Positions 38,348 through 64,000 are shown, counted from the stretch's first letter. The stretch: DNA of 64,000 nt from an uncultured Candidatus Bathyarchaeia archaeon (GCA_964484995.1 CAZAHF010000001.1:672-64671); one strand, 5' to 3'. Translations and numbers: made by a program. Notes: generated by a model not told the origin, from the sequence alone.

Positions 38348-39152
38348 TTAAGGTTCCCACCTCATGGTTTAAAGCTTGAGTCATAGGTTCTTCTTTTAAA
38401 CCTGAAGTTATAACAACCTCTTTTACACCCATTTGAAGAGCTTCAACAGCAGCATAAACCTTCTTTTTCATCCCATGTCCGATAACCTCAAGATTTTTCT
38501 TAGCTTCTTCAACACTCATTTTTCTTCTAACTGTTTCTTCAATTATTACACCCTCAACATCAGTACATATAATAATGGCGTCAGCCTTCAAAGCTCCAGC
38601 AATATAGGCTGCAGCACGGTCGCTATCAACATTTAAAAGCTGATATTCATCATCCATTGCTATTGGAGCAACAACAGGCAAATATCTAAGGTTAAGTAAG
38701 GCTTCCAAAAACTCCTTGTTTACAGCTTCAATTTTACCTGTGTAGCCACCGTCAATAGCAATCTTTCTTCCACGTTCATCCAAAACTATAAGCTTCTTTT
38801 TCCTTATAGCTCTTAAAAGAAAACCGTCAACACCAGACACCCCTACAGCCCTAATTCCATAACTTTGAAGCCAAGCAACAAGCTGCTTATTTATTTTCCC
38901 CGCCATAACCATAGTATAAACTTCCATTGTCTCTTTATCCGTATAACGGCTACGCATCCCATCAGGTGAAACAATAAACTTTTGCTCTTTACCCATAGCT
39001 TTAGCTGTTTGAGTAACCAGGTCTGCTCCACCATGGACTAAAACAACCTTATCATGTTCATATAAACTTTTTAAATCTTTTAGGAAGGATTCAGGAAAAC
39101 CAGACTTTAAAATACTTCCACCAATTTTAACAACAAACGTTTTTTGCTGCAC
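38334..39152 (-). CDS. lysZ: [LysW]-aminoadipate / acetylglutamate kinase (amino-acid kinase family)
   Basis: AAK-fold N-terminus (VVKIGGSIL) and the ArgB-like central region. Confidence 0.8.
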   Translation of the reverse strand: MQQKTFVVKIGGSILKSGFPESFLKDLKSLYEHDKVVLVHGGADLVTQTAKAMGKEQKFIVSPDGMRSRYTDKETMEVYTMVMAGKINKQLVAWLQSYGIRAVGVSGVDGFLLRAIRKKKLIVLDERGRKIAIDGGYTGKIEAVNKEFLEALLNLRYLPVVAPIAMDDEYQLLNVDSDRAAAYIAGALKADAIIICTDVEGVIIEETVRRKMSVEEAKKNLEVIGHGMKKKVYAAVEALQMGVKEVVITSGLKEEPMTQALNHEVGTLIVYE

Positions 39153-39372
39153 GTTTATTCCGCCTCAGCAACATACATTTTTACTAATGTAAGATAAAAC
39201 TACTCTATGAAAATTTTACCCTTATTTAAGTATTTCCCAATGTTTCACAAAGTCTCTTAAACATAATTTAGCGCTAGTAAAATTTGTGATAAACATATGG
39301 CTCCTATAAAAGTAAAGGTACATTATAGGTCTAGGTCTCCTAAATAATCTTTTTTATAAATAAAACGGTAGG

Positions 39373-40428
39373 TTAAATTGGATGTAAAGCTGGCTGATTT
39401 AAACCTGTTTTTTCATCTATTCTAAGCATAATATTCATGTTTTGAACAGCTATTCCAGCAGCACCTTTAATAAGGTTGTCTATTGCACCTAAAATTACAA
39501 GCCTATTTGTGTGGTTATCAATTTCAAACCCTAAATCACAAAAGTTTGAGCCAACAACAACTTTTGGGTCTGGAAGCCTATACAAACCCTTCCTGTCTCT
39601 GACAAGCCTAATAAACGGTTCACCCTGATAAAGAGACCTAAAAGCCTTCCATATAGTTGCTGTGTCTGCTTTTTCAACCAAAAAACTATGAACAGTTGTA
39701 AGAATCCCACGAACAATATTAACAGCATGAGCAGACATAGAAACCTTTACATTGGAGCCTGCGATTAAGCTTAACTCCTGCTCAATTTCAGCTGTATGTC
39801 TATGTCCGGTAGGCTTATAGGGTCTAACCACACCAAACCTTTCAGCATGATGGGTTGAAGCTGAAGGTTTAGCTCCAGCACCAGAAGAACCAATTTTAAC
39901 ATCAACAACAATATGGTCTTTATCAATAAGGTTTGCTTTAATCACGGGAGCTAACGCAAGGATAGTAACCACAGCCATACATCCAGGGCAAGCAACAAGC
40001 TGAGCATCCCTAATTTTTTCTCTGTAAAGCTCAGGAACACCATAAACAGCCTTTTTAAGAGTATCTGGTGCGGGATGATTCCAACCATACCATTTTGGAT
40101 AATCTTCAGGATTTTTTAACCTAAAATCAGCGCTTAAATCTATAACTTTTAAGCCAGCCTCTAAAAGTTTTGGTGTAAGTTTAGAGGAAACACCGTGAGG
40201 TGTTGACATAAAAACTAGGTCACACAAGTTAATTGTCTTTGAAAGATCTGGTTTATCAAATTGAAGATTTGTAACTCCTCTTAGGTTTGAGTGAACCCTA
40301 AAAACGTATTCTCCAACATATTCCCTTGAAGTTACCTGGGTTATTTCAACTTCAGGATGGGATAAAAGCAGTCTTAAAAGTTCTCCTCCAGTATAACCTG
40401 AACCTCCAATAATTCCAACACGAACCAT
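39373..40428 (-). CDS. lysY: [LysW]-aminoadipyl-phosphate / N-acetyl-gamma-glutamyl-phosphate reductase
   Basis: ArgC family (VGIIGGSGYTGGELLRLL; catalytic Cys in ACPGCMA). Confidence 0.85.
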   Translation of the reverse strand: MVRVGIIGGSGYTGGELLRLLLSHPEVEITQVTSREYVGEYVFRVHSNLRGVTNLQFDKPDLSKTINLCDLVFMSTPHGVSSKLTPKLLEAGLKVIDLSADFRLKNPEDYPKWYGWNHPAPDTLKKAVYGVPELYREKIRDAQLVACPGCMAVVTILALAPVIKANLIDKDHIVVDVKIGSSGAGAKPSASTHHAERFGVVRPYKPTGHRHTAEIEQELSLIAGSNVKVSMSAHAVNIVRGILTTVHSFLVEKADTATIWKAFRSLYQGEPFIRLVRDRKGLYRLPDPKVVVGSNFCDLGFEIDNHTNRLVILGAIDNLIKGAAGIAVQNMNIMLRIDEKTGLNQPALHPI

Positions 40429-40456
40429 GTTCTCCTTTAAACCTCCAAGTTTCTTT

Positions 40457-41314
40457 TTACCTTTTTGCCTTCCTAATCAGATACCCAACAATATATTTGG
40501 GGATGTTTACTTTTGTGGTTTCAACGGTTGCCTGAAACTCTATTGTATGGTTTATCTCATGAACAACCAAACCATCCTCGGTTTCCATCATGTCAACCCC
40601 TAAAATCCCTCCACCTACAGCTTCAGCAGCCTTAAGACTTAACTCTCTTAACTCATCAGTTATTGGGCAGTACTCAGCTTTTCCTCCTCTAGCTATATTA
40701 GTTTTCACATCATTAAAAGAATACCGATAAATTCCAGCTACAACCTCCTCTCCAACAACAAAAGTTCTAATATCTCTTGGTGGTCTTTTAACCAATTCTT
40801 GAAGGTAATAAATATGGTAAAGAGGAAACATATATTGTCTTTCTTCAAAAACAGCCTCAGCAGTTTCACGGTCCTTAAGAGGAACAATAAGTCTTCCCCA
40901 GCTTCCAATAATAGGCTTTAGAATAGCTGAATTGTTAAGCTTTTCAAAAGCGTTAAGAGCACTTTCAGGTGTAAATGCAACATAGGTTTTTGGGGTTGGA
41001 ACACCAGCCTTAGAAAGAGTTAGGGTTGTTAAAAGCTTATTACCACAAACACGAGCAACATCATAACGGTTAACCACAGTATATCCTTGATGCTCTAAGA
41101 TTGCCGATATGTTTAGGTTTCTAAAGTAGCTTACACAACGTTGAAGTATCACATCACCAAGAAACTCTTTTTTTTCAGGTTTACATGCTAAATCAAAAAA
41201 GTTTCTTTTTGCATCTATTAGTTTTACAGGTATACCTCCTGCTTTAGCAGTATCTATAATTGCTTTTTCTTCCCAACGTATCTGGTCATAAACTATTCCT
41301 ATAGAAATCCCCAA
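40457..41314 (-). CDS. lysX: LysX/ArgX RimK-type ATP-grasp ligase (attaches substrate to LysW C-terminus)
   Basis: ATP-grasp fold, 285 aa. The TTG start sits immediately after the lysW stop. Confidence 0.8.
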   Translation of the reverse strand: MGISIGIVYDQIRWEEKAIIDTAKAGGIPVKLIDAKRNFFDLACKPEKKEFLGDVILQRCVSYFRNLNISAILEHQGYTVVNRYDVARVCGNKLLTTLTLSKAGVPTPKTYVAFTPESALNAFEKLNNSAILKPIIGSWGRLIVPLKDRETAEAVFEERQYMFPLYHIYYLQELVKRPPRDIRTFVVGEEVVAGIYRYSFNDVKTNIARGGKAEYCPITDELRELSLKAAEAVGGGILGVDMMETEDGLVVHEINHTIEFQATVETTKVNIPKYIVGYLIRKAKR

Positions 41315-41488
41315 TCATTCTCCCCAATCTTCACCTGCAACCTGAACAGGCTTAACCTCAATGTTTCCAGCTTCAATTTTTGTTACTTCAAGTTCTAGAC
41401 CACAATCAGGGCAGGTTACAATTTCCCCAACAATAACATCATCTGGAACATTAAATTCTGCTCCGCATTCTGGACATTTAACTTTCAT
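41315..41488 (-). CDS. lysW: Amino-group carrier protein LysW (57 aa), not in the supplied ORF track
   Basis: Hand-translated from the minus strand: MKVKCPECGAEFNVPDDVIVGEIVTCPDCGLELEVTKIEAGNIEVKPVQVAGEDWGE. It has a Cys4 zinc ribbon plus an acidic EDWGE C-terminus, the hallmark of LysW. Confidence 0.8.
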   Translation of the reverse strand: MKVKCPECGAEFNVPDDVIVGEIVTCPDCGLELEVTKIEAGNIEVKPVQVAGEDWGE

Positions 41489-47915: not shown

Positions 47916-49328
47916 CTATTTTTCTAAACCAAACTCTTTATGTAAAACTTTAACAGCCTTTTCACCATCACTTTCCTTAACAACAAAAGAAATGTTTAAT
48001 TCAGACGAGCCTTGAGCAATCATCCTTACGTTTATTTTTTCTTTTCCAACAGCACCAAAAACTCTTGCAGCAACCCCAGGTGTTCCAACCATCCCAGCTC
48101 CAACCAATGCTATCACACAAATATCATCTTCAGCCTTAATTTCACGTGCAATATTCCCACCTAAAATTTTAACTTCAAGCGCGTTTAAAGCATCTTCAAG
48201 CATATCTCTTGGAACAACAAAGGAAATGTTTGCTTCTGAAGAACTCTGGGAAATCATAAGTATGTTAATATTTTTCTCTCCAAGAATACTAAAAATCTTT
48301 GCAGCAACTCCAGGAACACCAAACATACCTGCACCTTCAACAGTAATCAATGCAGCCTTACGAATCAAGGATATAGCCTTAACTATAGACCTAGATTCTA
48401 CCTTCTGCTCTTTAGTGATAAGGGTTCCCGGATTTTCTGGGTTAAACGTATTTTTAACTCTTATAGGTATTCCTTTCTCCATAACTATCTCAATAGCCCC
48501 AGGATGCATCATTTTAGCTCCAAAATAAGCCATTTCCATGGCTTCCGCATAGGATATTTGAGGTATAACTCTAGCTTTAGCTTCAATTTTAGGATCTGTT
48601 GTCATTATACCGTCAACATCAGTCCAAATCCAAATTTCATCAACATCCAAAGCAACACCTAAAATTGAGGCTGTACAGTCAGACCCTCCTCTACCTAAAG
48701 TTGTGATTACACCATTTTGGTCTGCAGCAATAAACCCAGTTACAATAGGTGTAACATCTTCATCAAGAAGTTTTTGAAGCCTACTTTTAACCTGATGACT
48801 TGTAGTCTCCATTAATGGTCTTGCACTACCAAAATTTGAGTCTGTTACTATTCCCGCGTCTTTTCCAGTAAACCACTGGGTTTTTACTCCCATAGATTTT
48901 AAGGCTCCCCACACAATAGGGGTTGAAAGTCTTTCCCCAAAACTTAATATATAATCTTTAATTCTTGGTGTAAGCTCACGGAGATACGCAACCCCAACTA
49001 AAACGTTTTCAAGTTCAAGAAGTGTATCTTTAATTGTTTCCTCTACAGCCCTACGAACAGTTTCCTCTTTTACCGCTTTTTTACATGTGTTTAAATGTCT
49101 TTGTTTAAGCTCATCAACAAATCTTTTAATAAATTCTTTTTCACCCTTACCAGCTAAATTAGATGCTCTAAGAAGCTCATCGGTTACTCCGGCTAAAGCT
49201 GAAACAACAACCACAATTTTATTGTCTTGCTTAAGATATTTGTCTATAAGATTGCATACATGGCTTATACGTTCCCCATCAGCGACAGATGTTCCGCCAA
49301 ACTTCATTACAAGCCTCATTTTTACCAC
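47916..49328 (-). CDS. ask: Aspartate kinase with C-terminal ACT domains
   Basis: KFGGTSV amino-acid-kinase N-terminus, TLGRGGSD motif, and two ACT repeats. Confidence 0.85.
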   Translation of the reverse strand: MVKMRLVMKFGGTSVADGERISHVCNLIDKYLKQDNKIVVVVSALAGVTDELLRASNLAGKGEKEFIKRFVDELKQRHLNTCKKAVKEETVRRAVEETIKDTLLELENVLVGVAYLRELTPRIKDYILSFGERLSTPIVWGALKSMGVKTQWFTGKDAGIVTDSNFGSARPLMETTSHQVKSRLQKLLDEDVTPIVTGFIAADQNGVITTLGRGGSDCTASILGVALDVDEIWIWTDVDGIMTTDPKIEAKARVIPQISYAEAMEMAYFGAKMMHPGAIEIVMEKGIPIRVKNTFNPENPGTLITKEQKVESRSIVKAISLIRKAALITVEGAGMFGVPGVAAKIFSILGEKNINILMISQSSSEANISFVVPRDMLEDALNALEVKILGGNIAREIKAEDDICVIALVGAGMVGTPGVAARVFGAVGKEKINVRMIAQGSSELNISFVVKESDGEKAVKVLHKEFGLEK

Positions 49329-49333
49329 TAAAC

Positions 49334-50380
49334 CTAAACATATCTTGAGGATTTTAAAGATATATCCTGTTTAATAGTTAATAAATCTCTCAGAATAGCA
49401 CTTGCAGTCTCTATTCCACCAGCACCTCTACCAATAACCGTTTCCTCACCAGCATATTGAGAAACAAAAGTTACCGCATTCAAAACTCCGCTAACACATA
49501 GAGGGTGATCTCTAGGAATTAGCTGTGGGGAAACCTGAAGTTCCCCTTCTTTAGCTGAAGCAATAAGCTTAATTTCACAACCTTTTTCTAGGGCTTTCCT
49601 AACATCTTCTAGGGTTATTCTTCTTATTCCCTCAACTTTTACATCTTTTAAAACAGCTCTTAAACCCAGAATCCAGTTAGCTAAAATTACAAGTTTACAT
49701 GCTGAATCATAACCGTCAACATCCATAGATGGATCTGCTTCTGCATAACCAGCTTTTTGAGCTTCAACTAAAGCCTCCTCAAAAGACATATTTTCATAAG
49801 TCATTCTTGTTAAAATATAGTTTGTTGTTCCATTAAGAATTCCTCTAAAAGAAAGAATTTTATCTCCTAAAAGACATTTTTTAGCAAAATCCAAGATGGG
49901 TGTTCCGCCACCAACACAACCACTAAACCTAAGTAAAACATTATTGTATTCCGCTAACTCCATAAGAGCTGGCATAGCTAAAGCTAAAGGCCCTTTATTA
50001 GTTGTAACAACATGTTTCCCCGTTCTTAGAGCTGTTTTAATGTGGGTTAATGCAGGTTCACCGTCAACTATATTTGTTGGTGTAGCCTCAACAACAACCT
50101 CCGCATCTGTTTCCTCAATAATTTTTGCCGCATTAACATTTCTAACACCGTTTTCCTCATCCATACAGACAGAACCTTTCTCCCTTTTTACATCTAAAAC
50201 TTTTTTAAGGTTTAATCCTTTAAGGTTTAAAGAAGCACCTCCACTATCAATAACAGCAATAATCTTAGGGTGAATTTTAAAACTCTCAATCAACTCTTTC
50301 TCTCTTACCAGCAAAAGCTTAGCAAAACTCTGACCAACAACACCAAAACCAACCAAGATTAACCGCATTTTAAACACCAA
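49334..50380 (-). CDS. hom: Homoserine dehydrogenase
   Basis: NAD-binding N-terminus (RLILVGFGVVGQ), HSD catalytic region and a C-terminal ACT-like segment. Confidence 0.85.
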   Translation of the reverse strand: MVFKMRLILVGFGVVGQSFAKLLLVREKELIESFKIHPKIIAVIDSGGASLNLKGLNLKKVLDVKREKGSVCMDEENGVRNVNAAKIIEETDAEVVVEATPTNIVDGEPALTHIKTALRTGKHVVTTNKGPLALAMPALMELAEYNNVLLRFSGCVGGGTPILDFAKKCLLGDKILSFRGILNGTTNYILTRMTYENMSFEEALVEAQKAGYAEADPSMDVDGYDSACKLVILANWILGLRAVLKDVKVEGIRRITLEDVRKALEKGCEIKLIASAKEGELQVSPQLIPRDHPLCVSGVLNAVTFVSQYAGEETVIGRGAGGIETASAILRDLLTIKQDISLKSSRYV

Positions 50381-51593
50381 CTATCCTTTTTATAACATCT
50401 AAGTCTGCTTCAACTTCAACAGGCTTAACAAAAAATTTAACTGGTGTATCCGGATCTTTTAGCCCATGACCAGTAGTAACACAAACAATAACCTCATCTT
50501 TATCGATTTCACCCATCTCTAAAAATTTTTTTAAGCCAGCAATTGAGGAGGCGCTTGCAGGTTCAACAAACAAACCTTCACTTCTAGCTAAAACCTTTTG
50601 AGCTTCAAGAATCTCTTTATCTGAAACAGTTTCAGCTTTCCCACCTGACTCTTTTATTGCACGTATAGCCTTCTTCCAGTTTACAGGAGCACCTATTCTT
50701 ATAGCTGTAGCTACAGTTTCAGGTTCAAGAACAGGCTCAATAGTGTCTTTTCCGGCTTTAACAGCTTTTGCTATTGGAGCTGCACCTTCAGCTTGAACAC
50801 CCATCATTTTAGGAAGAGAATTTATAAGTTCAAGCTCTTTAAACTCTTTAAATCCCTTCCATATAGCGCTAATGTTTCCCGCGTTTCCAACAGGAACAAT
50901 AACTCTGTCAGGTGGTCTACCATTTAACTGGTCTACAACCTCATAAGCCAGAGTTTTTTGTCCTTCAAGCCTATAAGGGTTAACAGAGTTAAGCATGTAA
51001 ACTTCACCACAATCGAGAGAAAGCCTAATAATAATGTTTAAAGCATCATCAAAATTTCCATGAATCTGAACCACCTCAGCCCCATAAACAATAGCCTGAG
51101 CAAGTTTCCCGTAAGCAACCTTTCCAGAAGGAATAACAACTAAACATCGAATACCAGCCTTCGCCGCATAGGCTGCTAAAGAAGCTGAAGTATTACCTGT
51201 CGAAGCGCAAACAACAGTTTTAACTCCATACTCTAAAGCTTTTGTTACACCAACAGTCATTCCCCTATCTTTAAAAGAGCCTGTCGGGTTTTCCCCCTCA
51301 TTTTTAACGTAAAGATTCCTTAATCCAAGTTTTTCAGCTAAACGGTTACATCTATAAAGCTTGGTTCCTCCCTCATTTAGTGAAACAATTTTTGACTCGT
51401 CAAGGATAGGTAAAAACTCTTTATATCTCCAAACTGATAGAGGCCTTTTTTCCCAGTCAGACTTTTCTATTTTGAATTTTAACTTTTCAAAATCGTATTT
51501 TACCTCAAGTAGATCTCCACATTTTTTACAGTAATAAACTACTTCCTCTGGGCTGCTTTTTTCATGACAACCTATACATTGAAGATAGAACAT
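50370..51593 (-). CDS. thrC: Threonine synthase
   Basis: PLP fold-type II with a Lys motif (GSFKDRG) and an N-terminal Cys-rich extension. It overlaps hom by 11 nt. Confidence 0.85.
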   Translation of the reverse strand: MFYLQCIGCHEKSSPEEVVYYCKKCGDLLEVKYDFEKLKFKIEKSDWEKRPLSVWRYKEFLPILDESKIVSLNEGGTKLYRCNRLAEKLGLRNLYVKNEGENPTGSFKDRGMTVGVTKALEYGVKTVVCASTGNTSASLAAYAAKAGIRCLVVIPSGKVAYGKLAQAIVYGAEVVQIHGNFDDALNIIIRLSLDCGEVYMLNSVNPYRLEGQKTLAYEVVDQLNGRPPDRVIVPVGNAGNISAIWKGFKEFKELELINSLPKMMGVQAEGAAPIAKAVKAGKDTIEPVLEPETVATAIRIGAPVNWKKAIRAIKESGGKAETVSDKEILEAQKVLARSEGLFVEPASASSIAGLKKFLEMGEIDKDEVIVCVTTGHGLKDPDTPVKFFVKPVEVEADLDVIKRIVGV

Positions 51594-52175
51594 TTACAAT
51601 ATTTCTCCAGGGACCTTCAAAAGAATCTTCCTTTTTTTCCTTAAAATCTTTTTAACTAGATACCACGGTATCATTCTTTCGGGAAGTTTTATCCCAAGCT
51701 TTTTAAAAATTTTTTCAAATCCAAGTCTTTCTAAAACACCTTCAATACCTATATCTAACCCGATAACACGCCAAGAACCACCAACTTGCTCAATTTTTAT
51801 ATCATCAACCCTATCAATTAAACGTCCATCAGCATCAACTATCTGCCTATCCAAAACATCCTTACATAAAAAAATCTTATTTTTAAGGTCTGGTTTAAAA
51901 TCCAACTCAACCATTTTCAAAAATTTTTCATGATCTGCCTTTAAAAAAAGATTCTTTTTCCCGATTTCCTTTACTTGACTCCAAGGAAGATAAACAAGAA
52001 ACTTTTTGCTTCTTATACCCAACTTTTTTAAAACTTTTTTTCTTGGTTTTATTGTTAAAGCAACAACTCTAGGAAAAACATGTCTAGAGTCAACTAGCAA
52101 ATCAGAAACTTTTCCTACTTTTTCACCGTCGGATGTTATAACAGTCTTTTTAAAGATGTCTTCACAAAATCTCAT
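51594..52175 (-). CDS. PRC-barrel domain protein (tandem PRC barrels)
   Basis: Two PRC-barrel-like segments (VITSDGEKVGKVSDLLVD; IVDADGRLIDRVDDIKIE). Its stop abuts the thrC start. Confidence 0.6.
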   Translation of the reverse strand: MRFCEDIFKKTVITSDGEKVGKVSDLLVDSRHVFPRVVALTIKPRKKVLKKLGIRSKKFLVYLPWSQVKEIGKKNLFLKADHEKFLKMVELDFKPDLKNKIFLCKDVLDRQIVDADGRLIDRVDDIKIEQVGGSWRVIGLDIGIEGVLERLGFEKIFKKLGIKLPERMIPWYLVKKILRKKRKILLKVPGEIL

Positions 52176-53998: not shown

Positions 53999-54064
53999 AC
54001 CATAAAAGTTAATTGTGAATTTTTAACAGTATTTTCAAGTGTAATCTAAAGGTCTTAAGGGTGA

Positions 54065-55345
54065 ATAGCCATATCTAAAACACCAACCTACATAAAAAAA
54101 ATTGTTAAGGAACACCATAAATGGAGAAGTAGCTGTATAAACCTTGTTGCAAGTGAAAATGTTACAAGCCCAGCTGTAAGGGAAGTTTTAGCCTCAGATT
54201 TTACTCATAGATATGCTGAAGGTGAACCTTACAATAGGCTTTATGGTGGAACAAAATATTTTGATGAGGTTGAAGCTTTTGCCATAAATCTGGCTAAAAA
54301 AATCTTTAAAGCTGAACATGTAAACCTCAAACCAATTTCAGGCTGCCAATCAAATCTAGCAGCTCTATATGCTTTAACAAATATTGGAGATACTGTTATG
54401 GCCTTATCCTTAGTTACTGGTGGGCATATTAGTTATATGGAGTTTGGTGGAGCTGGTGTTAGAGGATTAAAAGTTGAAAGTTTACCCTTTAACCCGGAAG
54501 AAATGAATGTTGACCTAGACGCTACAATAAGAAAGATTAGAGAGGTTAAACCAACTCTAATTTTTCTAGGTGGAAGCGTAATCCTATTTCCAGTTCCTAT
54601 CAAAGAAATAAAAGAGGCTTCAGAAGAAGCTGGAAGCAGTCTTGTTTATGACGCCTCTCATGTTTTAGGTTTAATAGCAGGCAAACAGTTCCAAGATCCT
54701 ATAGGTGAGGGGGTAGATGTTCTTACAAGCAGTACCCATAAAACTTTTCCAGGTCCTCAGGGTGGAATAATTTGCTGTAAAAAAAGTTTAGCTGAAAAAA
54801 TTGATAAGGCTGTTTTTCCTGGGCTTGTAAGCAACCATCATCTTCACCATATAGCAGCATTAGCTATAGCTCTCTTAGAAATGGAAAAGTTTGGGGTTGA
54901 GTATGCTAAACAAACAATAAAAAACGCTAAAGCTTTAGCTGAAAACCTATACAATCAAGGTTTTGATGTTATTTGTGCAGATAAAGGTTTTACAGAAAGC
55001 CATCAGGTTTTAGTTGATGTCTCAAAGTTTGGTGGAGGAGCTAAAACAGCAGACCTACTAGAAAAAGCAAACATTATTTGTAACAAGAATCTTATACCTA
55101 AGGATAATTTAAAAAATGCTGAAAACCCAAGCGGTATAAGATTAGGAACAGCAGAAATTACTAGACTTGGACTTAAAGAAAAAGACATGGAAAATGTTGC
55201 AACCTATATTAGAAAAGCTATTATTGACAGAGTCGATCCATTAAAGGTGGCTAAGGAAGTTAAAAAGTTTATGAAAAAGTTTTCAACTATAAAATACTGT
55301 TTTCAAAAAAGAAGTCAAGCTTACAAATATTTTGATTTCTACTAA
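54065..55345 (+). CDS. glyA: Serine hydroxymethyltransferase; 5' end unresolved (no canonical start codon in frame)
   Basis: SHMT motifs (INLVASENVTSPAVRE, RYAEGEPYNRLYGG, SSTHKTFPGPQGG). Conserved N-terminal sequence extends ~110 codons upstream of the first ATG (54398), up to an in-frame TGA at 54062-54064. Confidence 0.8.
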   Translation: MAISKTPTYIKKIVKEHHKWRSSCINLVASENVTSPAVREVLASDFTHRYAEGEPYNRLYGGTKYFDEVEAFAINLAKKIFKAEHVNLKPISGCQSNLAALYALTNIGDTVMALSLVTGGHISYMEFGGAGVRGLKVESLPFNPEEMNVDLDATIRKIREVKPTLIFLGGSVILFPVPIKEIKEASEEAGSSLVYDASHVLGLIAGKQFQDPIGEGVDVLTSSTHKTFPGPQGGIICCKKSLAEKIDKAVFPGLVSNHHLHHIAALAIALLEMEKFGVEYAKQTIKNAKALAENLYNQGFDVICADKGFTESHQVLVDVSKFGGGAKTADLLEKANIICNKNLIPKDNLKNAENPSGIRLGTAEITRLGLKEKDMENVATYIRKAIIDRVDPLKVAKEVKKFMKKFSTIKYCFQKRSQAYKYFDFY

Positions 55346-57168: not shown

Positions 57169-58269
57169 GTGATGAAGCCGAGAGAAATCTTAGAGAATTT
57201 TAAGCCTTACGAGTGGGAACTCTCAGTTATAGATGTGGCAAAAAAGTTTGGTTTAAACCCGGATAAAATTTTAAGGTTTGACACAAACACGATGCCTTTC
57301 CAACCAATAAGGTTACTTGAAAAGCTTAACCAGAAACTTTTAAATCTTAAGGTTAATGAATACCCTGAAACTTCCTATTTGGAGTTAAGAGAGGCTTTAG
57401 CAAGATATCTTAGGAGAAATGTGGATGAAATAACTGTTACAGCTGGATGTGATGAAGCCTTAGATATTCTTGTAAAAGTTTTTATAGACCCTAATACAAA
57501 GGTTCTGGTTTCAACTCCAACCTATGCCATGTATAGAGTTGTTGTTGAAGCCATGGGTGGAAAAATTGTTAATATCCAAAGAAAACCTGATTTTTCAGAT
57601 GATGTAGAGAACATTCTTAGAACTGTTGACAATAAAACAAAACTTATTTTCCTTTGCAATCCTAACAATCCAACAGCAAACCCAATATCCGAAAAAACAG
57701 TCACCCAGTTACTTGATGAAACAGATTGTGCTGTAGTTGTAGATGAGTCTTACGTAGAGTTTTATGGAAAATCTTTTGTAAATCTAATAGACAAGTATGA
57801 GAATCTCATAATTCTTAGAACTTTTTCTAAAGCTTTTTCTTTAGCTGGTGCTAGGGTTGGCTACATGGTTGCAAACAAAAAAACTATAAACCTTTTAAAT
57901 CTTATGCGTCCTCCAAATAGTTTAACAGTAATTTCTTTAGCTTTAGCAAAAATTGCCCTGGAAAACTTAGACTGGATTAGAGAAAATGTTAAAAAAATTG
58001 TTGAAGAGAGAGAAAGATTAGCAAAGGTTTTAGGTGAAATAGACGGGGTTTATGTTTATCCATCTGTAACAAACTTTCTCCTAGTAAAATTTGTTAAAGG
58101 GAATGTTAACAAAATTCATCAAGAACTTTTGAAAAGTGGGATTATAACAAGAAATGTTAGTGATCAGCCTATGCTGGAGAACTGCTTAAGAATTACTGTA
58201 AGAAAACCAGAAGAAAACAGGGTTTTAATTGAAAACCTTAAAAAAATTCTCTCAAGAATAGGAGGTTAA
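57169..58269 (+). CDS. hisC: Histidinol-phosphate aminotransferase (class II PLP aminotransferase)
   Basis: HisC-like length and motifs (PLP-Lys in FSKAFSLAGARVGY; N-terminal YPE). Confidence 0.8.
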   Translation: MMKPREILENFKPYEWELSVIDVAKKFGLNPDKILRFDTNTMPFQPIRLLEKLNQKLLNLKVNEYPETSYLELREALARYLRRNVDEITVTAGCDEALDILVKVFIDPNTKVLVSTPTYAMYRVVVEAMGGKIVNIQRKPDFSDDVENILRTVDNKTKLIFLCNPNNPTANPISEKTVTQLLDETDCAVVVDESYVEFYGKSFVNLIDKYENLIILRTFSKAFSLAGARVGYMVANKKTINLLNLMRPPNSLTVISLALAKIALENLDWIRENVKKIVEERERLAKVLGEIDGVYVYPSVTNFLLVKFVKGNVNKIHQELLKSGIITRNVSDQPMLENCLRITVRKPEENRVLIENLKKILSRIGG

Positions 58270-58278
58270 AAAGGAAGG

Positions 58279-58545
58279 TTGGAGAAAGATAAAGTTGTTG
58301 TAGTTGTTGTTGGGAAAGATAAACCAGGACTTATTGCAGGAGTAACCTCAATAATATCGGGGTTAAACGGAAACATAGAGGATATGGATCAGGTTGTGCT
58401 TCAAGAAGTATTTATAATGTCACTAATTGTAAAATTCTTAAACTTAGAAACCACAGAAAAAATTGAAAAACTGGTAAGTATGCTTAATAAGGAAGGAGAA
58501 AAGCTTGGTTTAAAAATTCATGTTTATCCTTTAAATAAACTTTAA
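58279..58545 (+). CDS. Stand-alone ACT-domain protein (88 aa)
   Basis: The ACT-domain ligand-binding loop KDKPGLIAGVTSIISGLNGNI parallels that of the N-terminal domain of the downstream SerB. Confidence 0.6.
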   Translation: MEKDKVVVVVVGKDKPGLIAGVTSIISGLNGNIEDMDQVVLQEVFIMSLIVKFLNLETTEKIEKLVSMLNKEGEKLGLKIHVYPLNKL

Positions 58546-58560
58546 GGAAAATGTGAAAGA

Positions 58561-59487
58561 ATGGGGAATATTATAGTTACAAGTATTGGTAGAGACAGAC
58601 CTGGCATAGTTGCTGGGATATCAAATATACTTTATCGGCATAATGCAAACATCCTTAAAACAAGAGCCTCAATTCTAGGCGGACTTTTTGTTATGGTTAT
58701 GGTTGTTGATATATCAAAAGTAAACATTAAACTTGAAGACTTAATTTCAAAATTAAAGGAGAAAGGTGTAGAACTTGGTTCGGGAATTTCTGTTGAGGAT
58801 GAGAAAACCTATCGTAAAAAGAAAAAGCTTGTAGCATTTGATTTAGATGGAACTTTGATTCAGATGGAAACTTTAGATGAACTTGCAAAAGCTGCTGGTG
58901 TTTATGAGGAAGTAAAAAAGATTACAAAGATGGCCATGGAAGGAAAAATGAGCTTTAAGGAAGCATTAGCTAGAAGGGTTAAGCTTCTAAAAAATCTACC
59001 AGTAGAAGAGGTGGAAAAGTTAAAGAGGAGAATAGAGTTTACACCTGGTGTTCAAGATCTTGTTAAGGAACTTAAAAAAGCTGGTTTTGTTACAGCAATT
59101 ATTACTGGTGGATTTGATGTTTTTGCTAAACATGTTGCTGAAAAACTTGGAATAGAGTATGTTTACGCTAACAGACTGATTGTTAGGAAGGGTGTTCTAA
59201 CTGGAGAGTTTAAGGGCGAAATTGTTTCTGCTCAATCGAAACTTAAAGCTTTAACAGAGATAGCTAAAAAGGAAGGTATAAGCCTTAGTGAATGTGTTGC
59301 TGTGGGGGATGGGGCAAACGATGTTTTTATTCTAAAAAGTTCAGGTTTAGGTATTGGGTATAAACCAAAAACAGTTGTTAAACGTCATGCTAAAGCCTTA
59401 ATCAACAGTGAGGATTTAAGGACAATTATGGCTTTTATTGGAGGAGGCCAAATAAGAAAAGATGTAATCAAAAAACTTAAAGAGTAG
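58561..59487 (+). CDS. serB: Phosphoserine phosphatase (HAD superfamily) with N-terminal ACT domain
   Basis: ACT region (RDRPGIVAGISNIL), then HAD motif I (LVAFDLDGTLI), motif II/III and motif IV (VGDGANDVF). Confidence 0.8.
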   Translation: MGNIIVTSIGRDRPGIVAGISNILYRHNANILKTRASILGGLFVMVMVVDISKVNIKLEDLISKLKEKGVELGSGISVEDEKTYRKKKKLVAFDLDGTLIQMETLDELAKAAGVYEEVKKITKMAMEGKMSFKEALARRVKLLKNLPVEEVEKLKRRIEFTPGVQDLVKELKKAGFVTAIITGGFDVFAKHVAEKLGIEYVYANRLIVRKGVLTGEFKGEIVSAQSKLKALTEIAKKEGISLSECVAVGDGANDVFILKSSGLGIGYKPKTVVKRHAKALINSEDLRTIMAFIGGGQIRKDVIKKLKE

Positions 59488-59488
59488 C

Positions 59489-59830
59489 CTAGACAGGAAT
59501 AATTCTTATCGTCCCATCTTTTCTGTTTATTCTAATCTCAATTTCATCATTATATTGGTATTTATGTTCCATTCTTTCCCATTCTTGATTTGTCAAAAAA
59601 AGAACAAGTCTATGCGTATATGTTTTCCCTTGACTAAACATTTTTGGTATTTGACTTAAAATTGGTATAACAAAAGAAAATTCTTGAGGTACGTTGCTTG
59701 GAAAAGACATTACTGTTGGAGGTTTTTGGGCTTCAACACTAAACTCAACACAAACATACTCGTTTCCATAGGGATCTGAAGATGGGTGGATGGATGTAAC
59801 TTTACAGTGTATTATAATCTCATCGTCCAT
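59489..59830 (-). CDS. Hypothetical protein (113 aa)
   Basis: ORF only, with no recognisable motif. It is convergent with serB with a 1-nt gap. Confidence 0.4.
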   Translation of the reverse strand: MDDEIIIHCKVTSIHPSSDPYGNEYVCVEFSVEAQKPPTVMSFPSNVPQEFSFVIPILSQIPKMFSQGKTYTHRLVLFLTNQEWERMEHKYQYNDEIEIRINRKDGTIRIIPV

Positions 59831-60098
59831 ATTTTTTTCCTCAAAGATTAGTTTTAAACATCCTTCCCTTATAAAGAAGTTGTATATGGCTTGTCGTAAC
59901 GCTTAAATACTGTTTTTTTCCTATTATGAAATTCAAGTGTGAGGTTGTTGGTGGTGAACAGGAGGCTTTACGTTTTCTGGAGGTCTTGTATTTACCCTAG
60001 GTAACCAAGGAGACTCTAGGAAAAAGAAGTTTTTCATAAAATTTTTCTGGGTTTTTTATAAATCTTCTTTTACCCATGGATACTGGAGGGACTAAATT

Positions 60099-61331
60099 AT
60101 GGTTAAAAGTTTAATTGTAAAGTTTGGCGGCTCCTGTCTTTCAACACCTCAAAACATAAACTTAGCTGCAAAAAAGGTTGTTGAAGAAGTTAAAAAAGAC
60201 CGTAAAATTGCGGTTGTTGTTTCAGCTTTAGCCGGAGTAACCGATAATCTTCTTAAAACAGCTACTGAAGCAAGTTTAAATAAGCTTTCAAAAGAAGAGT
60301 TAGACGAAATTTTGTCTATGGGTGAAAGAACAGCGACAAGGCTAATGGTTTCAGCTCTAAAATCCTATGGTTTAAAGGCTATAGGGTTAGACCCTGCGGA
60401 TAAACTTTGGCCTATCTATACTAACGCAGAATATGGGAATGCCGAGGTTGATTTAGAAAAAACTTTGAAGGCTGTTAAAAGGAAGATTAAACCTTTACTT
60501 GATAATGGTTTTGTGGTTGTTGTCCCTGGTTTTATTGGTTTATCGCCAGAAGGTAAAACTACAACCTTGGGTAGAGGTGGAAGTGACATTACAGCTGTTG
60601 TTTTGGGTAGGTGTATTGAAGCTGATGAGGTTGTTTTTGTTAAAGATGTTGCTGGGGTTCTTTCAGCAGACCCAAAAAAGATTCCTACACCAACAAAAAT
60701 AGATGTTTTGGATGCTGAAGAAATGTTTAGTTTAAGTTCAGCAGGTGCAAAAGTTCTTCATCCAAGAGCATTAAAATATGTGACAAACAGTCTTACCTTA
60801 AGAGTTGCTGGTTTTAATGAAAGTCTTTCAGAAGGAACAGTGATAAAAGGAGAATTAGGTGTTGGTTTAAGGGTTTTCCTTTACCCTAAACCAGTATCCA
60901 TGGTAACAATAGTTGGAAGAGAGGTTGCAACACCAGAATCATTATTAAAAATTTTTTCAGAAACTCTTCCAACAAAGACAAAAATTTTAGGTTTAACTCT
61001 TGCCTCACCTTCTCTACTACTTTATGTTGAAAACCCTTCAAAGCTGATTAAAAATATTCATAACTTAATTAAAACTCAAAAAGTTGCTAAGGCTATTCAC
61101 AGTTTTGAACCGCTAACATTAATTATTGTTTCAGGTCATGAGTTAGAAAAGACTCCAGGTATTGTTGATTGTATTTCAGCTCCTTTAGCTAAAGAGAACA
61201 TTAACCTTTATGGTTTACTTACCATAAGTAATTCTGTTCGTGTTTTTGTTCATCAAAAAGATGGTAAGAAAGCTCTGGAGCTAATAAAAGAAAATTTAAG
61301 TAAAACAGGATTAGTTTTGCAGGAGGTGTAA
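60099..61331 (+). CDS. Aspartate kinase paralog (410 aa)
   Basis: Amino-acid-kinase N-terminus (IVKFGGSCL), TLGRGGSD motif and a C-terminal regulatory region. It is immediately upstream of asd. Confidence 0.75.
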   Translation: MVKSLIVKFGGSCLSTPQNINLAAKKVVEEVKKDRKIAVVVSALAGVTDNLLKTATEASLNKLSKEELDEILSMGERTATRLMVSALKSYGLKAIGLDPADKLWPIYTNAEYGNAEVDLEKTLKAVKRKIKPLLDNGFVVVVPGFIGLSPEGKTTTLGRGGSDITAVVLGRCIEADEVVFVKDVAGVLSADPKKIPTPTKIDVLDAEEMFSLSSAGAKVLHPRALKYVTNSLTLRVAGFNESLSEGTVIKGELGVGLRVFLYPKPVSMVTIVGREVATPESLLKIFSETLPTKTKILGLTLASPSLLLYVENPSKLIKNIHNLIKTQKVAKAIHSFEPLTLIIVSGHELEKTPGIVDCISAPLAKENINLYGLLTISNSVRVFVHQKDGKKALELIKENLSKTGLVLQEV

Positions 61332-61333
61332 CT

Positions 61334-62383
61334 ATGGCTGGAAAACTAAAAGCCGCAGTTTTAGGAGCAACCGGAATGGTTGGACAAATGTTTGTTAGAC
61401 TTCTAGAAAAAAATCCGTGGTTTAAGGTTGAGGTTGTAGCCGCCTCTGAAAGGTCTGTGGGTAAAAGATACTGTGAAGCCATGAGAGGTGGGGGAACTCT
61501 TGGAGAATTTTCTGAGGAGACTATGAATCTTGAAGTTCAACCTTTAAACCCTAAAGCCTTAAAAGATGTTGATGTTGTTTTTTCAGCGTTACCATCAGAT
61601 GTGGCTTATAAAATTGAGGAAGATTTTGCTAAAGAAGGATTTATTGTTTTAAGTAATGCAAGCTCTCATAGGATGGACCCTGATGTTCCAATTTTAAATC
61701 CTGAGGTAAACTGGGAACATATTGTCTTAATCGAGGATCAACGTAAAAGAAGAAACTGGGATGGGGCAATAGTAACAAATCCTAACTGTACAACAGCAAT
61801 TCTTACTCTTTCACTTAAACCAATTTTTGATAGGTTTGGTTTAAAACGTGTTATAGTTTCTACTATGCAAGCTGTTTCTGGAGCTGGTTACCCGGGTGTA
61901 GCTTCTTTAGATATTATTGATAATGTTATTCCTTTCATTAAAAAAGAGGAAGAAAAAGTTTGTAGTGAGTCTTTAAAAATGATGGGTTCTCCTGAGAAAC
62001 CTGCATCATTTAAGATTTCTGCAAGCTGTCATAGAGTTCAAACTATTGATGGCCATTTAGAAGCTGTTTTTGTTGAAACTGAGGAAAAAGTTAAGCCCGA
62101 AGATGTTGTTGAAGTTATGGTTAAGTTTGAAAGTGAACCTCAAAAACTTAAGCTTCCAACAGCTCCAAGCCCACCTATAGTTGTTAGGTTTGAAGAGAAC
62201 CGTCCTCAGCCAAGACTTGATAGAATGGCTGGTGATGGTATGGCTGTTGTTGTTGGTAGAGTTAGAAAAGATGATGTTTTTGAATGTGTAAAGTATGTTG
62301 TTTTAGGTCATAACCTAATTAGGGGAGCTGCTGGATGCTCAATTTTGAATGCTGAACTACTTAAAGCAAAAGGATACTTATAG
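61334..62383 (+). CDS. asd: Aspartate-semialdehyde dehydrogenase
   Basis: Rossmann N-terminus (LGATGMVGQ), catalytic Cys (NPNCTT) and an archaeal-type Asd length. Confidence 0.9.
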
Positions 62384-62396
62384 GAGGTGTAGAGAT

Positions 62397-63188
62397 TTGG
62401 ATATAGGTAAAAAACGGAGACTAAACAGAATTTTTAGAAAAGATGGAAAAGCGGTAATTGTTCCTATGGATCATGGGGTAACCATAGGTCCTGTTAAAGG
62501 CTTAGTTGATATGCAACAAACAATTAACAAGCTGATACTTGGTGAAGCTGACGCCGTAGTGGTTCATAAGGGTATTGCAAGCTATGTTGACACTGAGGGT
62601 CTTGGGCTTATTATCCATCTTTCTGGAAGCACAAAAATCGGGCCGGATCCAAACTGGAAGGTTAACGTATGTAGTGTTAAACAAGCTTTAAGACTAGGAG
62701 CAGACGGAGTTTCTGTTCATGTAAATGTAGGTTCAGCTCAGGAACCAGAAATGCTAAAAAGTATGGGTAGAATAGCTGATAAGGCGGCAGAATACGGGTT
62801 ACCACTACTAGCTATGATGTATCCAAGAGGACCTAACATAAAAAATGAACATGACCCTGAGCTTGTTAAACATGCTGCAAGACTTGGGGCGGAGCTTGGA
62901 GCAGACATAATAAAAACAAATTATACTGGAAGTATCGAAAGCTTTAGAGAGGTTGTTAAAGGCTGTCCTGTTCCAGTAATAATTGCTGGTGGACCTAAAG
63001 CCAAAGATGATGCTGGATTCTTAAGGATGGTTTATGATTCTATTCAGGCTGGTGGAGCAGGAGTATCTATAGGTCGAAACGTTTTCCAGCACCAAAACCC
63101 AACAGGAATGGTTAAGGCTCTAAACGCGATAGTTCATGAAAAAGCCACTGTTGAAGAAGCATTAAAAATTCTTGGTGAATCTGGATGA
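62397..63188 (+). CDS. DhnA-family class I aldolase, probable 2-amino-3,7-dideoxy-D-threo-hept-6-ulosonate (ADH) synthase AroA'
   Basis: DhnA/FbaB-family motifs ([18 protein letters not shown] Schiff-base Lys). The TTG at 62397 is preferred as the start because a GGAGGTG SD follows the asd stop directly; the ORF track starts at 62349 inside asd. Assignment to ADH synthase rather than FBP aldolase rests on context. Confidence 0.65.
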
Positions 63189-64000
63189 AGGAGCTATGGG
63201 TTGAAGTAAACGAGGAGCTGCCAGAAAACCTTAAGCAATCAATTTTAGAAAACTGTAAAAAAGGTTGTAATGTGGTTATTGTTGAAAAAGACTCTCTTAA
63301 ATATGCTAAAAACTTAAACCTAACAACAGCCTCAAAAACAGATGGAGACTTAGTTTTAGTTGAGGGTTTAGATGAGAATCTTATTAAAAAACATGTAAAC
63401 GAGAAAAAGCGGGTTTGTGTTAAAATAACAGTTAAAGACAGAGAAGATGAAGAAAAGATTGTTAATGCAGCAAACATAGGTGCATCCTACATTATTGCTT
63501 TATGTCAAAACTGGAAAATCATTCCACTTGAAAACTTAATAGCAAAAATTCGTGGAAAAGCAAAACTTTTAACAGAAGTTTCAAATGCGGATGAAGCAAA
63601 ATTAGCTTTAGAAATTTTAGAGCTTGGCGTTGATGGTGTTGTTCTCAAAACAGACAAACCAGAAACAATACAAGAGGTAGCCTTGACTTTAGCAAACTTT
63701 AAAGAAAAACCAAGATTAAAGTTAACCATTGCAAAAATCTTGGGGAGTAAAGAGATAGGTTTAGGTGACAGAGTTTGTATCGACACATGTAATCTTATGG
63801 AGAAGGGAGAAGGAATTCTTGTAGGATGTCAGTCTTCAGGCTTGTTTCTTGTTCAAGCAGAGGTTTTAGAAACTCCTCATGTTGAACCAAGACCTTTTAG
63901 GGTTAATGCAGGGCCAGTCTCACTTTATGTACTTGCAACAAAAGATAAAACACGCTATCTTTCAGAGTTAAAAGCTGGAGAAGAAATTTTGATTGTTGAT
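63185..64000 (+). CDS. 3-dehydroquinate synthase II-like protein (AroB'), 3' end beyond window
   Basis: An open frame from ATG 63185 (ATGA overlap with the aldolase stop) runs to the window end. Translation ([15 protein letters not shown] ... [10 protein letters not shown] ... GDRVCIDTC) has the right length class for DHQS-II. The call is supported mainly by genomic context. Confidence 0.6.

Follow-up and report, generated by a model that had tools for sequence, protein, structure and literature searches.

We identified, at the 3′ end of a 64,000-nucleotide stretch of DNA from an uncultured Candidatus Bathyarchaeia archaeon (GCA_964484995.1, CAZAHF010000001.1:672-64671; the whole stretch is hereafter the window), four co-directional genes whose order across archaea supports their assignment as the 5′ half of a conserved archaeal aro operon. 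The first enzyme gene, ask2, encodes an aspartate kinase paralogue that would be the aromatic isozyme of the pathway, and it is followed by genes for aspartate-semialdehyde dehydrogenase (asd), a predicted 2-amino-3,7-dideoxy-D-threo-hept-6-ulosonate (ADH) synthase (aroA′), and a predicted 3-dehydroquinate (DHQ) synthase II (aroB′). Ahead of ask2 lies an unannotated, conserved leader, a candidate first cistron present in 19 of 19 Bathyarchaeia lineages. We are fairly confident of the reading as a whole, that is, an aro operon, an aromatic-pathway ask2, and a translated leader with a proposed sensing function. All four enzymes belong to known families in which they are unremarkable, and their pathway is that of Methanocaldococcus and Methanococcus; what is new, besides the leader, is that the operon is widespread in TACK and Asgard archaea.

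The 4 open reading frames (ORFs) lie on the + strand, as first predicted (Table 1), and are separated by a 2-nt gap, a 13-nt gap (a 35-nt overlap if aroA′ starts at ATG 62349), and an ATGA overlap. The contigs carrying them end 114 nt past the window, so the downstream gene order was taken from relatives. Two independent public assemblies with these genes break at the same base, window position 64114, inside aroB′, perhaps because a repeat or a site that varies between strains lies there. The genes run ask2-asd-aroA′-aroB′-aroD-aroE-aroK-aroA-aroC, 9 in all, in the relative L007 (ask2 89% identical), and trpDCFBAEG-prx-ask2-asd-aroA′-aroB′-aroD-aroE-aroK (GHMP type)-aroA-aroC in Candidatus Hecatella orcuttiae, and from these gene orders we take the cluster to be the first part of an aro operon of nine genes.

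An alignment of ask2 homologues was searched against one genome per species, and the 80 returned loci were annotated by local tblastn; the 85 ask2 loci considered here comprise 78 from this species-level collection and 7 further Bathyarchaeia contigs. The aroA′-aroB′ pair, with or without asd before it, directly followed the ask2 homologue in 57 of the 85 loci, usually continued by aroD-aroE-aroK-aroA-aroC. Within the 78 loci, aroA′ was directly downstream of ask2 in 50 (39 with asd between and 11 without), all 8 following genes were present in 19, asd alone followed in 5 (3 of them ended by a contig edge), and neither asd nor aro genes were found in 23, of which 4 were cut by the contig end, 11 were Caldarchaeum-type, 3 Hadarchaeota-type, and 5 distant matches of bacterial, Thermoplasmata, or Nanoarchaeota origin. 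All 7 further Bathyarchaeia contigs had ask2-(asd)-aroA′-aroB′-aroD. Aro-linked ask2 was identified in at least 5 archaeal phylum-level groups (Bathyarchaeia, Thaumarchaeota, Aigarchaeota, Korarchaeia, and Asgard archaea), with loci from Jord/Freyarchaeia, Borr/Promethearchaeota, Heimdallarchaeota, one Korarchaeia metagenome-assembled genome (MAG), many Nitrososphaerales/Thaumarchaeota, and the Aigarchaeota Pelearchaeum, Terraquivivens, and Geocrenenecus. A query with thaumarchaeal ask2 for a cultured carrier returned MAGs alone.

A neighbour-joining tree placed the ask2 sequences in a single clade apart from ask1, the other aspartokinase gene of the window (47916-49328, - strand; NF004938 at 665 bits against a cut-off of 528), which is accompanied by hom (49334-50380, - strand) and thrC (50370-51593, - strand). 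This second operon had been predicted to span 47916-52175; the thrC-hom-ask arrangement is confirmed, but the ORF at 51594-52175 encodes a PRC-barrel protein and drops out of it. Both isozymes occur within one locus in Bathyarchaeia, Thaumarchaeota, and Borr/Promethearchaeota, and thrC-hom-ask1 and the aro operon are paired in a single locus in L009, L011, and L046. Where the two are co-located, ask1 goes with hom/thrC (Bathyarchaeia) or with asd (Borr/Promethearchaeota and one thaumarchaeon), and ask2 goes with aroA′. In 16 lineages the operon has no asd gene, and in Borrarchaeota/Promethearchaeota asd is the partner of ask1; ask2, more than asd, is the constant partner of aroA′. The separate ask2 clade, its synteny with aroA′-aroB′, and the company of ask1 uphold the view that the 2 aspartokinases are pathway-specific isozymes.

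We weighed whether ask2 and asd could instead be a general supply of aspartate semialdehyde that sits beside aroA′, with ask1 as the specialised threonine enzyme and no aromatic-specific control, and we consider this unlikely. Such a role would suit the operon asd, which as the sole copy in the window must also feed hom and thrC, as well as the ask2-type genes of Caldarchaeum and Hadarchaeota that lie apart from aro genes, and the form of the enzyme, which at ~400 residues and with a match to TIGR00656, the monofunctional class, is the ordinary housekeeping type in many bacteria. It fits poorly with the persistence of ask2 beside aroA′ in the 16 lineages whose operon no longer includes asd, with the division of partners in loci holding both aspartokinases, and with the operon having its own Phe/Tyr-codon leader, described below. 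Two points nonetheless weigh against an aromatic isozyme: the specialisation of ask2 is read from gene context, and the ask2 clade is not always aro-linked, as the lone Caldarchaeum and Hadarchaeota genes show. The Caldarchaeum-type genes are solitary, having neither asd nor any aro gene within 10 kb (L035-L037, L041, L049, L054-L056, L062, L064, and L071), and Pelearchaeum and Terraquivivens, sister Aigarchaeota of Caldarchaeum, retain the full operon. In L086, a Nanoarchaeota MAG contig (1-2484), the gene of a DhnA-family aldolase with 43% identity to AroA′ sits upstream of a distant ask-like gene, at an interval of 52 nt.

The identity of the 4 enzymes was assessed from profile matches, pairwise scores, and predicted structure. 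Ask2 matched PF00696 (AA_kinase) at 164 bits and TIGR00657 (asp_kinases) at 272 bits against a cut-off of 208.7, and its best equivalog model, NF005159, scored 371.5 bits, just under the cut-off of 379. Its AlphaFold model gave full-length Foldseek matches to solved aspartokinases (E 1e-34). The catalytic motifs KFGGS, GER, LGRGGSD, and DP are invariant across 19 ask2 sequences and align to the Methanocaldococcus jannaschii aspartokinase MjAK, the invariant residues being K8, G10, G11, S12, G75, E76, R77, G158, R159, G161, S162, and D163; KFGG, GER, and LGRGGSD are the nucleotide/aspartate-binding motifs. The asd product matched TIGR00978 (asd_EA) at 471 bits against a cut-off of 301 and NF006416 at 487 bits, and the gene is the sole asd in the window, a weak asd match at 39373-40428 being LysY/ArgC.

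The aldolase ORF opens at ATG 62349 and stops at 63188; TTG 62397 lies 7 nt after GGAGGTG and is likely the true aroA′ start, being so called in 2 public assemblies. Its product exceeded the TIGR01949 (ADH_synth) cut-off of 299 with 364 bits and matched MJ0400 at 322 bits and the Thermoproteus fructose-bisphosphate (FBP) aldolase 1ojx at 150 bits. The segments VPMDHGV, MMYPRG, and ADI(I/V)KT are identical in the alignment with MJ0400, and the aligned residues correspond to the catalytic D33, Y153, and K184 (the Schiff-base lysine) of that enzyme. An FBP aldolase identity was rejected, the archaeal FBP aldolase model scoring 245 against a cut-off of 430 and 1ojx reaching only the score given above, as was an LsrF identity (201 bits against 297). 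Model cut-offs and pairwise scores thus agree on an ADH synthase of the MJ0400 type rather than the FBP-aldolase type, as had been proposed. The aroB′ product, cut by the window end, matched PF01959 (DHQS) at 252 bits against a cut-off of 22.2 over profile positions 1-258 of 344, and its top NCBIfam equivalog score was 236 against 485; full-length homologues in relatives carry PF01959 and PF26558. This match, and the aroD-aroE-aroK-aroA-aroC genes that follow the full-length homologue in relatives, bear out the assignment of the partial ORF to DHQ synthase II. From family membership, the two proteins would function as ADH synthase and DHQ synthase II.

A different product is conceivable for this pair, as GriI/GriH-type enzymes make 3-amino-4-hydroxybenzoate from aspartate semialdehyde and dihydroxyacetone phosphate, and ask and asd would then supply the precursor. 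Clusters of the bagremycin/ferroverdin type also draw on aspartate semialdehyde, and the corresponding models BagB_FevI (NF041223) and BagC_FevH (NF041224) gave sub-threshold matches of 240 and 115 bits. These scores are far under the respective cut-offs of 500 and 750, while the ADH_synth cut-off is passed and MJ0400 is matched strongly, and the relatives continue downstream with the genes that would take 3-dehydroquinate to chorismate. We therefore rejected the GriI/GriH-type pair, which we regard as barely credible.

In the pathway as we propose it, Ask2 would phosphorylate aspartate, Asd would reduce the product to aspartate semialdehyde, ADH synthase would join this to a keto-sugar phosphate (DKFP, or 6-deoxy-5-ketofructose-1-phosphate, in Methanocaldococcus), and DHQ synthase II would cyclise the resulting compound to 3-dehydroquinate, with Ask2 allowing the aromatic branch to draw aspartate semialdehyde independently of Ask1. 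The DKFP/ADH pathway of M. jannaschii and Methanococcus maripaludis uses the same 2 enzymes (AroA′, MJ0400, and AroB′, MJ1249), with aspartate semialdehyde as the amino donor substrate; for many archaea DKFP synthase is either missing or under dispute, and in haloarchaea so is the identity of the sugar substrate disputed. In the methanogens, ask (MJ0571), asd (MJ0205), aroA′, and aroB′ are scattered and a single Thr-sensitive aspartokinase is known, whereas here a second ask and asd head one nine-gene operon.

The original prediction had described the cluster as a self-contained entry into the pathway, which is overstated: the cluster holds no source of the sugar substrate (DKFP or an equivalent), and asd is probably shared. 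The coupling of ask and asd to aroA′-aroB′ stands as gene linkage but not as a dedication of asd to aromatics. Since asd is the sole copy in the window, is absent from 16 operons, and accompanies ask1 in Borr/Promethearchaeota, it is better seen as shared, probably the only copy and serving both the aromatic and the Thr/Met branches. No genes of the diaminopimelate (DAP) pathway, for 3-deoxy-D-arabino-heptulosonate 7-phosphate (DAHP) synthase, or for type-I DHQ synthase were found within the 64-kb window. A LysW cluster (lysW, lysX, lysY/argC, lysZ/argB, and lysJ/argD; 37142-41488, - strand), whose lysW product has 57 residues and ends in EDWGE, fits lysine synthesis via alpha-aminoadipate and could serve arginine too; of the proposal that lysine is made via LysW with no DAP genes, the cluster and the DAP absence within these 64 kb are retained.

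Ask1 and Ask2 share 27% identity, and ~56 residues of Ask1 are absent from Ask2 between Ask2 residues 49 and 50. Ask1 aligns end to end with the threonine-sensitive M. jannaschii enzyme (469 bits), and Ask2 aligns with it in the catalytic domain alone (127 bits). The C-terminal 150 residues of Ask2 scored 23.9 bits with Pfam ACT_7 and 18.8 bits with ACT_9, both under the cut-off of 27, and the AlphaFold model (pLDDT 88.5) contains 2 beta-alpha-beta-beta-alpha-beta ACT units at residues 266-327 and 332-402. Because the regulatory region of Ask2 diverges in sequence, regulation differing from that of Ask1 is plausible, as is separate allosteric control of the two enzymes; the effector of Ask2 would likely be aromatic end products, or none. 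To our knowledge, no aspartokinase responding to aromatic compounds has been described, and ask2 offers a concrete family in which to seek one.

Control at this step would matter, as in archaea that use aspartate semialdehyde for aromatics the bacterial DAHP-synthase control point has no obvious target. A lone Thr-inhibited aspartokinase would starve the aromatic branch under plentiful threonine, which an ask2 in the aro operon would solve, and its spread over Bathyarchaeia, Thaumarchaeota, Aigarchaeota, Korarchaeia, and Asgard archaea suggests that this solution is old and general. The arrangement resembles that of the Escherichia coli isozymes (ThrA/MetL/LysC and AroF/AroG/AroH), in which one first step is carried out by several enzymes tied to their branches by operon membership and each isozyme also has its own feedback inhibitor; it would differ in that control of the aromatic branch point has moved from DAHP synthase to aspartokinase.

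The idea of an aspartokinase specialised for aromatics is reportedly already published: a 2009 study by Lo et al. reportedly placed ask genes in contexts implying ectoine or aromatic amino acid specialisation, and is said to have separated ASK-alpha from ASK-beta by an N-terminal indel of ~75 residues and to have described for ASK-beta an in-frame internal start yielding a small regulatory subunit. It predates the Bathyarchaeia, Aigarchaeota, and Asgard genomes and is not known to describe a leader. The ~56 residues that Ask2 lacks relative to Ask1 match the deletion of ASK-beta relative to ASK-alpha, which would put Ask2 on the ASK-beta side. Met268 of Ask2 (60900-60902), at the border of the catalytic and ACT regions, is encoded by ATG in 43 of 44 ask2 genes and resembles the ASK-beta internal start; an SD-like (Shine-Dalgarno-like) motif precedes it in just 6 of 44, which makes an internal start there doubtful. 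The literature that we searched contained nothing linking ask/asd to aroA′/aroB′. The closest characterised parallel is bacterial: according to PMC5924519, Ask_Ect is a paralogous aspartokinase co-transcribed (ectABCD-ask) with the ectoine pathway that consumes aspartate semialdehyde, forms its own sub-cluster without the housekeeping feedback residues, and has asd usually outside the cluster. Ask_Ect serves an osmolyte pathway and has been characterised biochemically as inhibited only by Thr; Ask2 is archaeal and stands in an aromatic context, often with asd adjacent.

We aligned the 270-nt gap between the upstream arcadin-like gene and ask2 in the 4 closest lineages and identified a block of ~100 nt (59895-59997) that is far better conserved than its flanks. 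The leader was found first in 12 lineages and then, out of sample, in 7 of 7 new contigs, for a total of 19 Bathyarchaeia lineages, some with asd in the operon and some without. In 16 of them, a (C)TTAAATA box precedes the leader start by 41-50 nt, and the BRE/TATA-like (transcription factor B recognition element/TATA-like) element of the window probably acts as a promoter. Downstream of it, a short leader ORF opens with an NTG start that precedes the anchor TTTTC by exactly 7 codons in 18 of 19 lineages, with a GGAGG-like SD ~7 nt upstream. This ORF has 16-33 codons and encodes the pattern x-x-x-(R/W)-(R/G)-x-x-(V/L/I)-F-(R/W)-(G/R)-x-x-x-Y, in which the Phe codon TTC and the Tyr codon (TAC or TAT, varying synonymously) are invariant. 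The 2 residues fall in tandem 18-nt modules, GGRGG-N6-NTT-TTC and GGRGG-N6-NTT-TAY, with GGRGG, TTTTC, and TTTAY at fixed spacing in 19 of 19 lineages (GGRGG before each module in 18-19 of 19), and NUU-U is present at both modules in all 19, N being C in some lineages and mostly G or A at module 1.

The frame at +1 relative to the leader ORF (hereafter the +1 frame) has no start codon in most lineages, often with a stop just before the conserved block, and it remains open to within -11 to +26 nt of the ask2 start in 19 of 19, with an ATGA-type overlap in most. Its tail of 20-37 non-conserved codons is stop-free in 18 of 19 lineages, whereas the other 2 frames each have at least 1 stop in all 19, and the leader ORF itself stops 49-107 nt before the end of the +1 frame in every lineage. 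The shuffle P for an open +1 frame was 0.05-0.41 per lineage, and the log10 values sum to -15. Changes in the tail between close pairs numbered 6, 8, and 4 and 11, 6, and 9 at codon positions 1, 2, and 3, against 19, 8, and 38 and 12, 10, and 40 in ask2. The tail thus has no third-position bias, which argues that its openness, not its peptide, is under selection, and a conserved small protein in this frame was rejected on the same ground.

Other explanations of the gap were examined. Rfam gave no match, whether the whole window was scanned at gathering thresholds or 59800-60150 at E<=10; RNAalifold on the 19 leader sequences gave 0 consensus pairs, and the minimum free energy z-score of the leader was +0.34. 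A structured RNA or riboswitch was rejected, as a G.U-rich hairpin seen with 4 sequences showed no compensatory changes and vanished with 19, and the folding energy was no better than that of shuffles. A 24-codon ATG ORF at 59926 is interrupted by TAG in relatives. We did not find the leader element elsewhere in the window or the loci, a metagenome scan with the leader core returned the same 4 Hecatellales lineages alone, no public annotation examined calls a gene in the gap, and the literature searched contains no description of the leader.

We propose that the leader is translated and ends on the ask2 start, which we regard as highly probable; that it senses aromatic aminoacyl-tRNA we hold to be an evenly balanced question; and the specific mechanism, a +1 frameshift at RF2-like hungry codons in 2 modules with Phe and Tyr A-site codons, is offered tentatively and may well be wrong. 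Under this proposal, the leader would be translated from its NTG start in the operon mRNA, and ribosomes would enter the +1 frame by a +1 shift inside the conserved block, the sole simple route. When Phe-tRNA or Tyr-tRNA is scarce, a ribosome would pause with NUU in the P site and, in the manner of the RF2 (prfB) site, slip +1 onto UUU, after which it would read the +1 frame to the ask2 start, and termination-reinitiation would raise operon expression, to which shielding of the leader RNA would perhaps add.

The leader shares with the prfB site (AGGGGG-UAU-CUU-UGA) an internal SD-like motif, a P-site NUU followed by U, an open +1 frame, and an A-site codon whose slow decoding reports on the product of the regulated gene, here supposed for Phe or Tyr limitation. 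It differs in that a sense codon (Phe UUC, Tyr UAY) takes the place of the stop in the A site, the spacing is 6 rather than 3 nt, the module is duplicated, and the shifted frame encodes no conserved protein and finishes at the start codon of the gene that follows; it is also archaeal and known here from its sequence. As in trpL, pheL, and hisL, a short 5′ ORF carries codons for the amino acids of its own operon, but unlike those attenuators the leader has no runs of regulatory codons, no alternative hairpins, and no terminator. We know of no leader-peptide attenuation in Archaea.

Several features count against sensing by frameshift. The SD-to-P-site spacing is 6 nt, whereas the RF2 shift of E. 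coli is driven by a spacing of 3 nt; GUU, the commonest P-site codon of the modules, is a poorer slippery codon than CUU; L018 and L019 carry an ATG or TTG start in the +1 frame itself; ask2 has its own SD (GGAGGG, 60085-60090), and coupling may be needless; and no analogous module precedes the trp operon of H. orcuttiae. A Trp-codon module was sought there and rejected, what was found being just a 7-codon upstream ORF (uORF), VHQLDWR. This uORF (L003, 350-400, upstream of trpD) has one Trp codon and an SD-like GGGGAG and lies downstream of a TTAAATA box.

The leader could possibly be no sensor but a constitutive upstream ORF that couples ribosomes to ask2, with ribosomes reaching the +1 frame through non-canonical initiation or an obligatory shift, and we would not be greatly surprised by such an outcome, although we doubt it. 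Strong statistics exist only for the openness of the +1 frame and its stop at the ask2 start, the tail peptide is unconserved, and the starts in L018 and L019 would be natural under constitutive coupling. Yet the start codon is kept in the leader ORF and not in the +1 frame (L095 has ATA in the +1 frame and ATG in the leader ORF), and coupling does not call for invariant Phe and Tyr codons, the latter varying synonymously, each set after NUU and GGRGG at the same 6-nt spacing. It is decidedly improbable, in our judgment, that the conserved block is a DNA operator of two 18-bp direct repeats, or a small non-coding RNA, with the frame features incidental. Archaeal repressor sites typically consist of tandem direct repeats just past a TATA box, and the nucleotide conservation exceeds the need of a short leader peptide; the want of consensus RNA structure and of an Rfam match speaks against the RNA, and an operator does not explain the fixed SD and start or a stop-free frame of 20-37 non-conserved codons (18 of 19) whose stop overlaps the ask2 start.

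If the frameshift proposal is correct, no earlier case would be known of an amino-acid-sensing programmed frameshift controlling a biosynthetic operon, nor of leader-peptide-type control in Archaea, with RF2-like sensing at sense codons as a new regulatory principle. Even as a mere coupling uORF, the leader would be an unannotated first cistron in all 19 lineages. The ask2 operons of Thaumarchaeota (L045, L048, L050, L052, L053, L057-L059, and L061) have their own conserved leader ~200 nt upstream, consisting of a GCATAAATA (TATA) box and a Phe/Tyr-rich uORF, MRLQRGGSVYPHLSYQKPIFGFRY, with the 2 other frames free of stops until close to the ask2 start; in its details it is unlike the leader of Bathyarchaeia.

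Table 1. Positions of the leader elements, the predicted aro operon genes, and the isozyme operon, counted from the first base of the window
Feature	Position	Strand	Remarks
BRE/TATA-like element, CGTAACGCTTAAATA	59895-59909	+	~45 nt upstream of leader start; invariant in the 4 closest lineages
Leader ORF (frame f2), GTG start, 17 codons, VVNRRLYVFWRSCIYPR	59951-60004	+	SD-like GAGG 59941-59944; stop TAA 60002-60004
Two tandem 18-nt modules	59961-59977 (GGAGG-N6-GTT-TTC); 59979-59995 (GGAGG-N6-ATT-TAC)	+	Fixed spacing
Frame f0 (+1 of leader ORF)	59958-60095	+	From stop 59955-59957 to TAA 60093-60095, 3 nt before ask2 ATG; no start codon
ask2, aspartate kinase paralogue, 410 aa	60099-61331	+	PF00696, TIGR00657; first enzyme gene of operon
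asd, archaeal-type aspartate-semialdehyde dehydrogenase, 349 aa	61334-62383	+	TIGR00978
aroA′, predicted ADH synthase, 263 aa from TTG	62397-63188	+	TIGR01949, MJ0400
aroB′, predicted 3-dehydroquinate synthase II, N-terminal 271 of ~360 residues	63185 to beyond 64000	+	PF01959
thrC-hom-ask1 operon, isozyme partner of ask2	47916-51593	-	NF004938, M. jannaschii match

The host contig is an ordinary archaeal chromosomal stretch of ~35% G+C, and the nearest named relatives of the window proteins are Candidatus Hecatellales (Bathyarchaeia) MAGs. Other genes identified in the window include those for family-B DNA polymerase, deoxyhypusine synthase, S-adenosylmethionine (SAM) synthetase, prolyl-tRNA synthetase (ProRS), an archaeal threonyl-tRNA synthetase (ThrRS), and CofE, along with a his operon, a purine operon, an arcadin-1-like gene, and the LysW cluster; a search for tRNA genes gave none. 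The arcadin-1-like gene (PF18653; 59489-59830, - strand) is divergent from the aro operon and could share with it the conserved TATA at 59903-59909. Immediately before the aro operon (57169-59487, + strand) lie genes for a HisC-type aminotransferase, an 88-aa ACT protein, and an ACT-SerB fusion, a set that is kept in the same place in the Hecatellales relatives L007, L009, L011, L012, L046, and L091. The same HisC-type aminotransferase precedes the trp operon in H. orcuttiae, and in Thaumarchaeota another class I/II aminotransferase follows aroC; the HisC-type enzyme may be an aromatic aminotransferase.

Further upstream, the serine hydroxymethyltransferase (SHMT) gene (54065-55345, + strand) is publicly called as 315 aa from ATG 54398, a product that matches profile positions 106-403 only. 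From 54065 onward the frame has no stop, and this stretch supplies the N-terminus that the called product lacks. It offers no ATG, GTG, or TTG, and an SD-like AGGGTGA (54058-54064) is followed by ATA at 54071, which makes an AUA start of SHMT probable.

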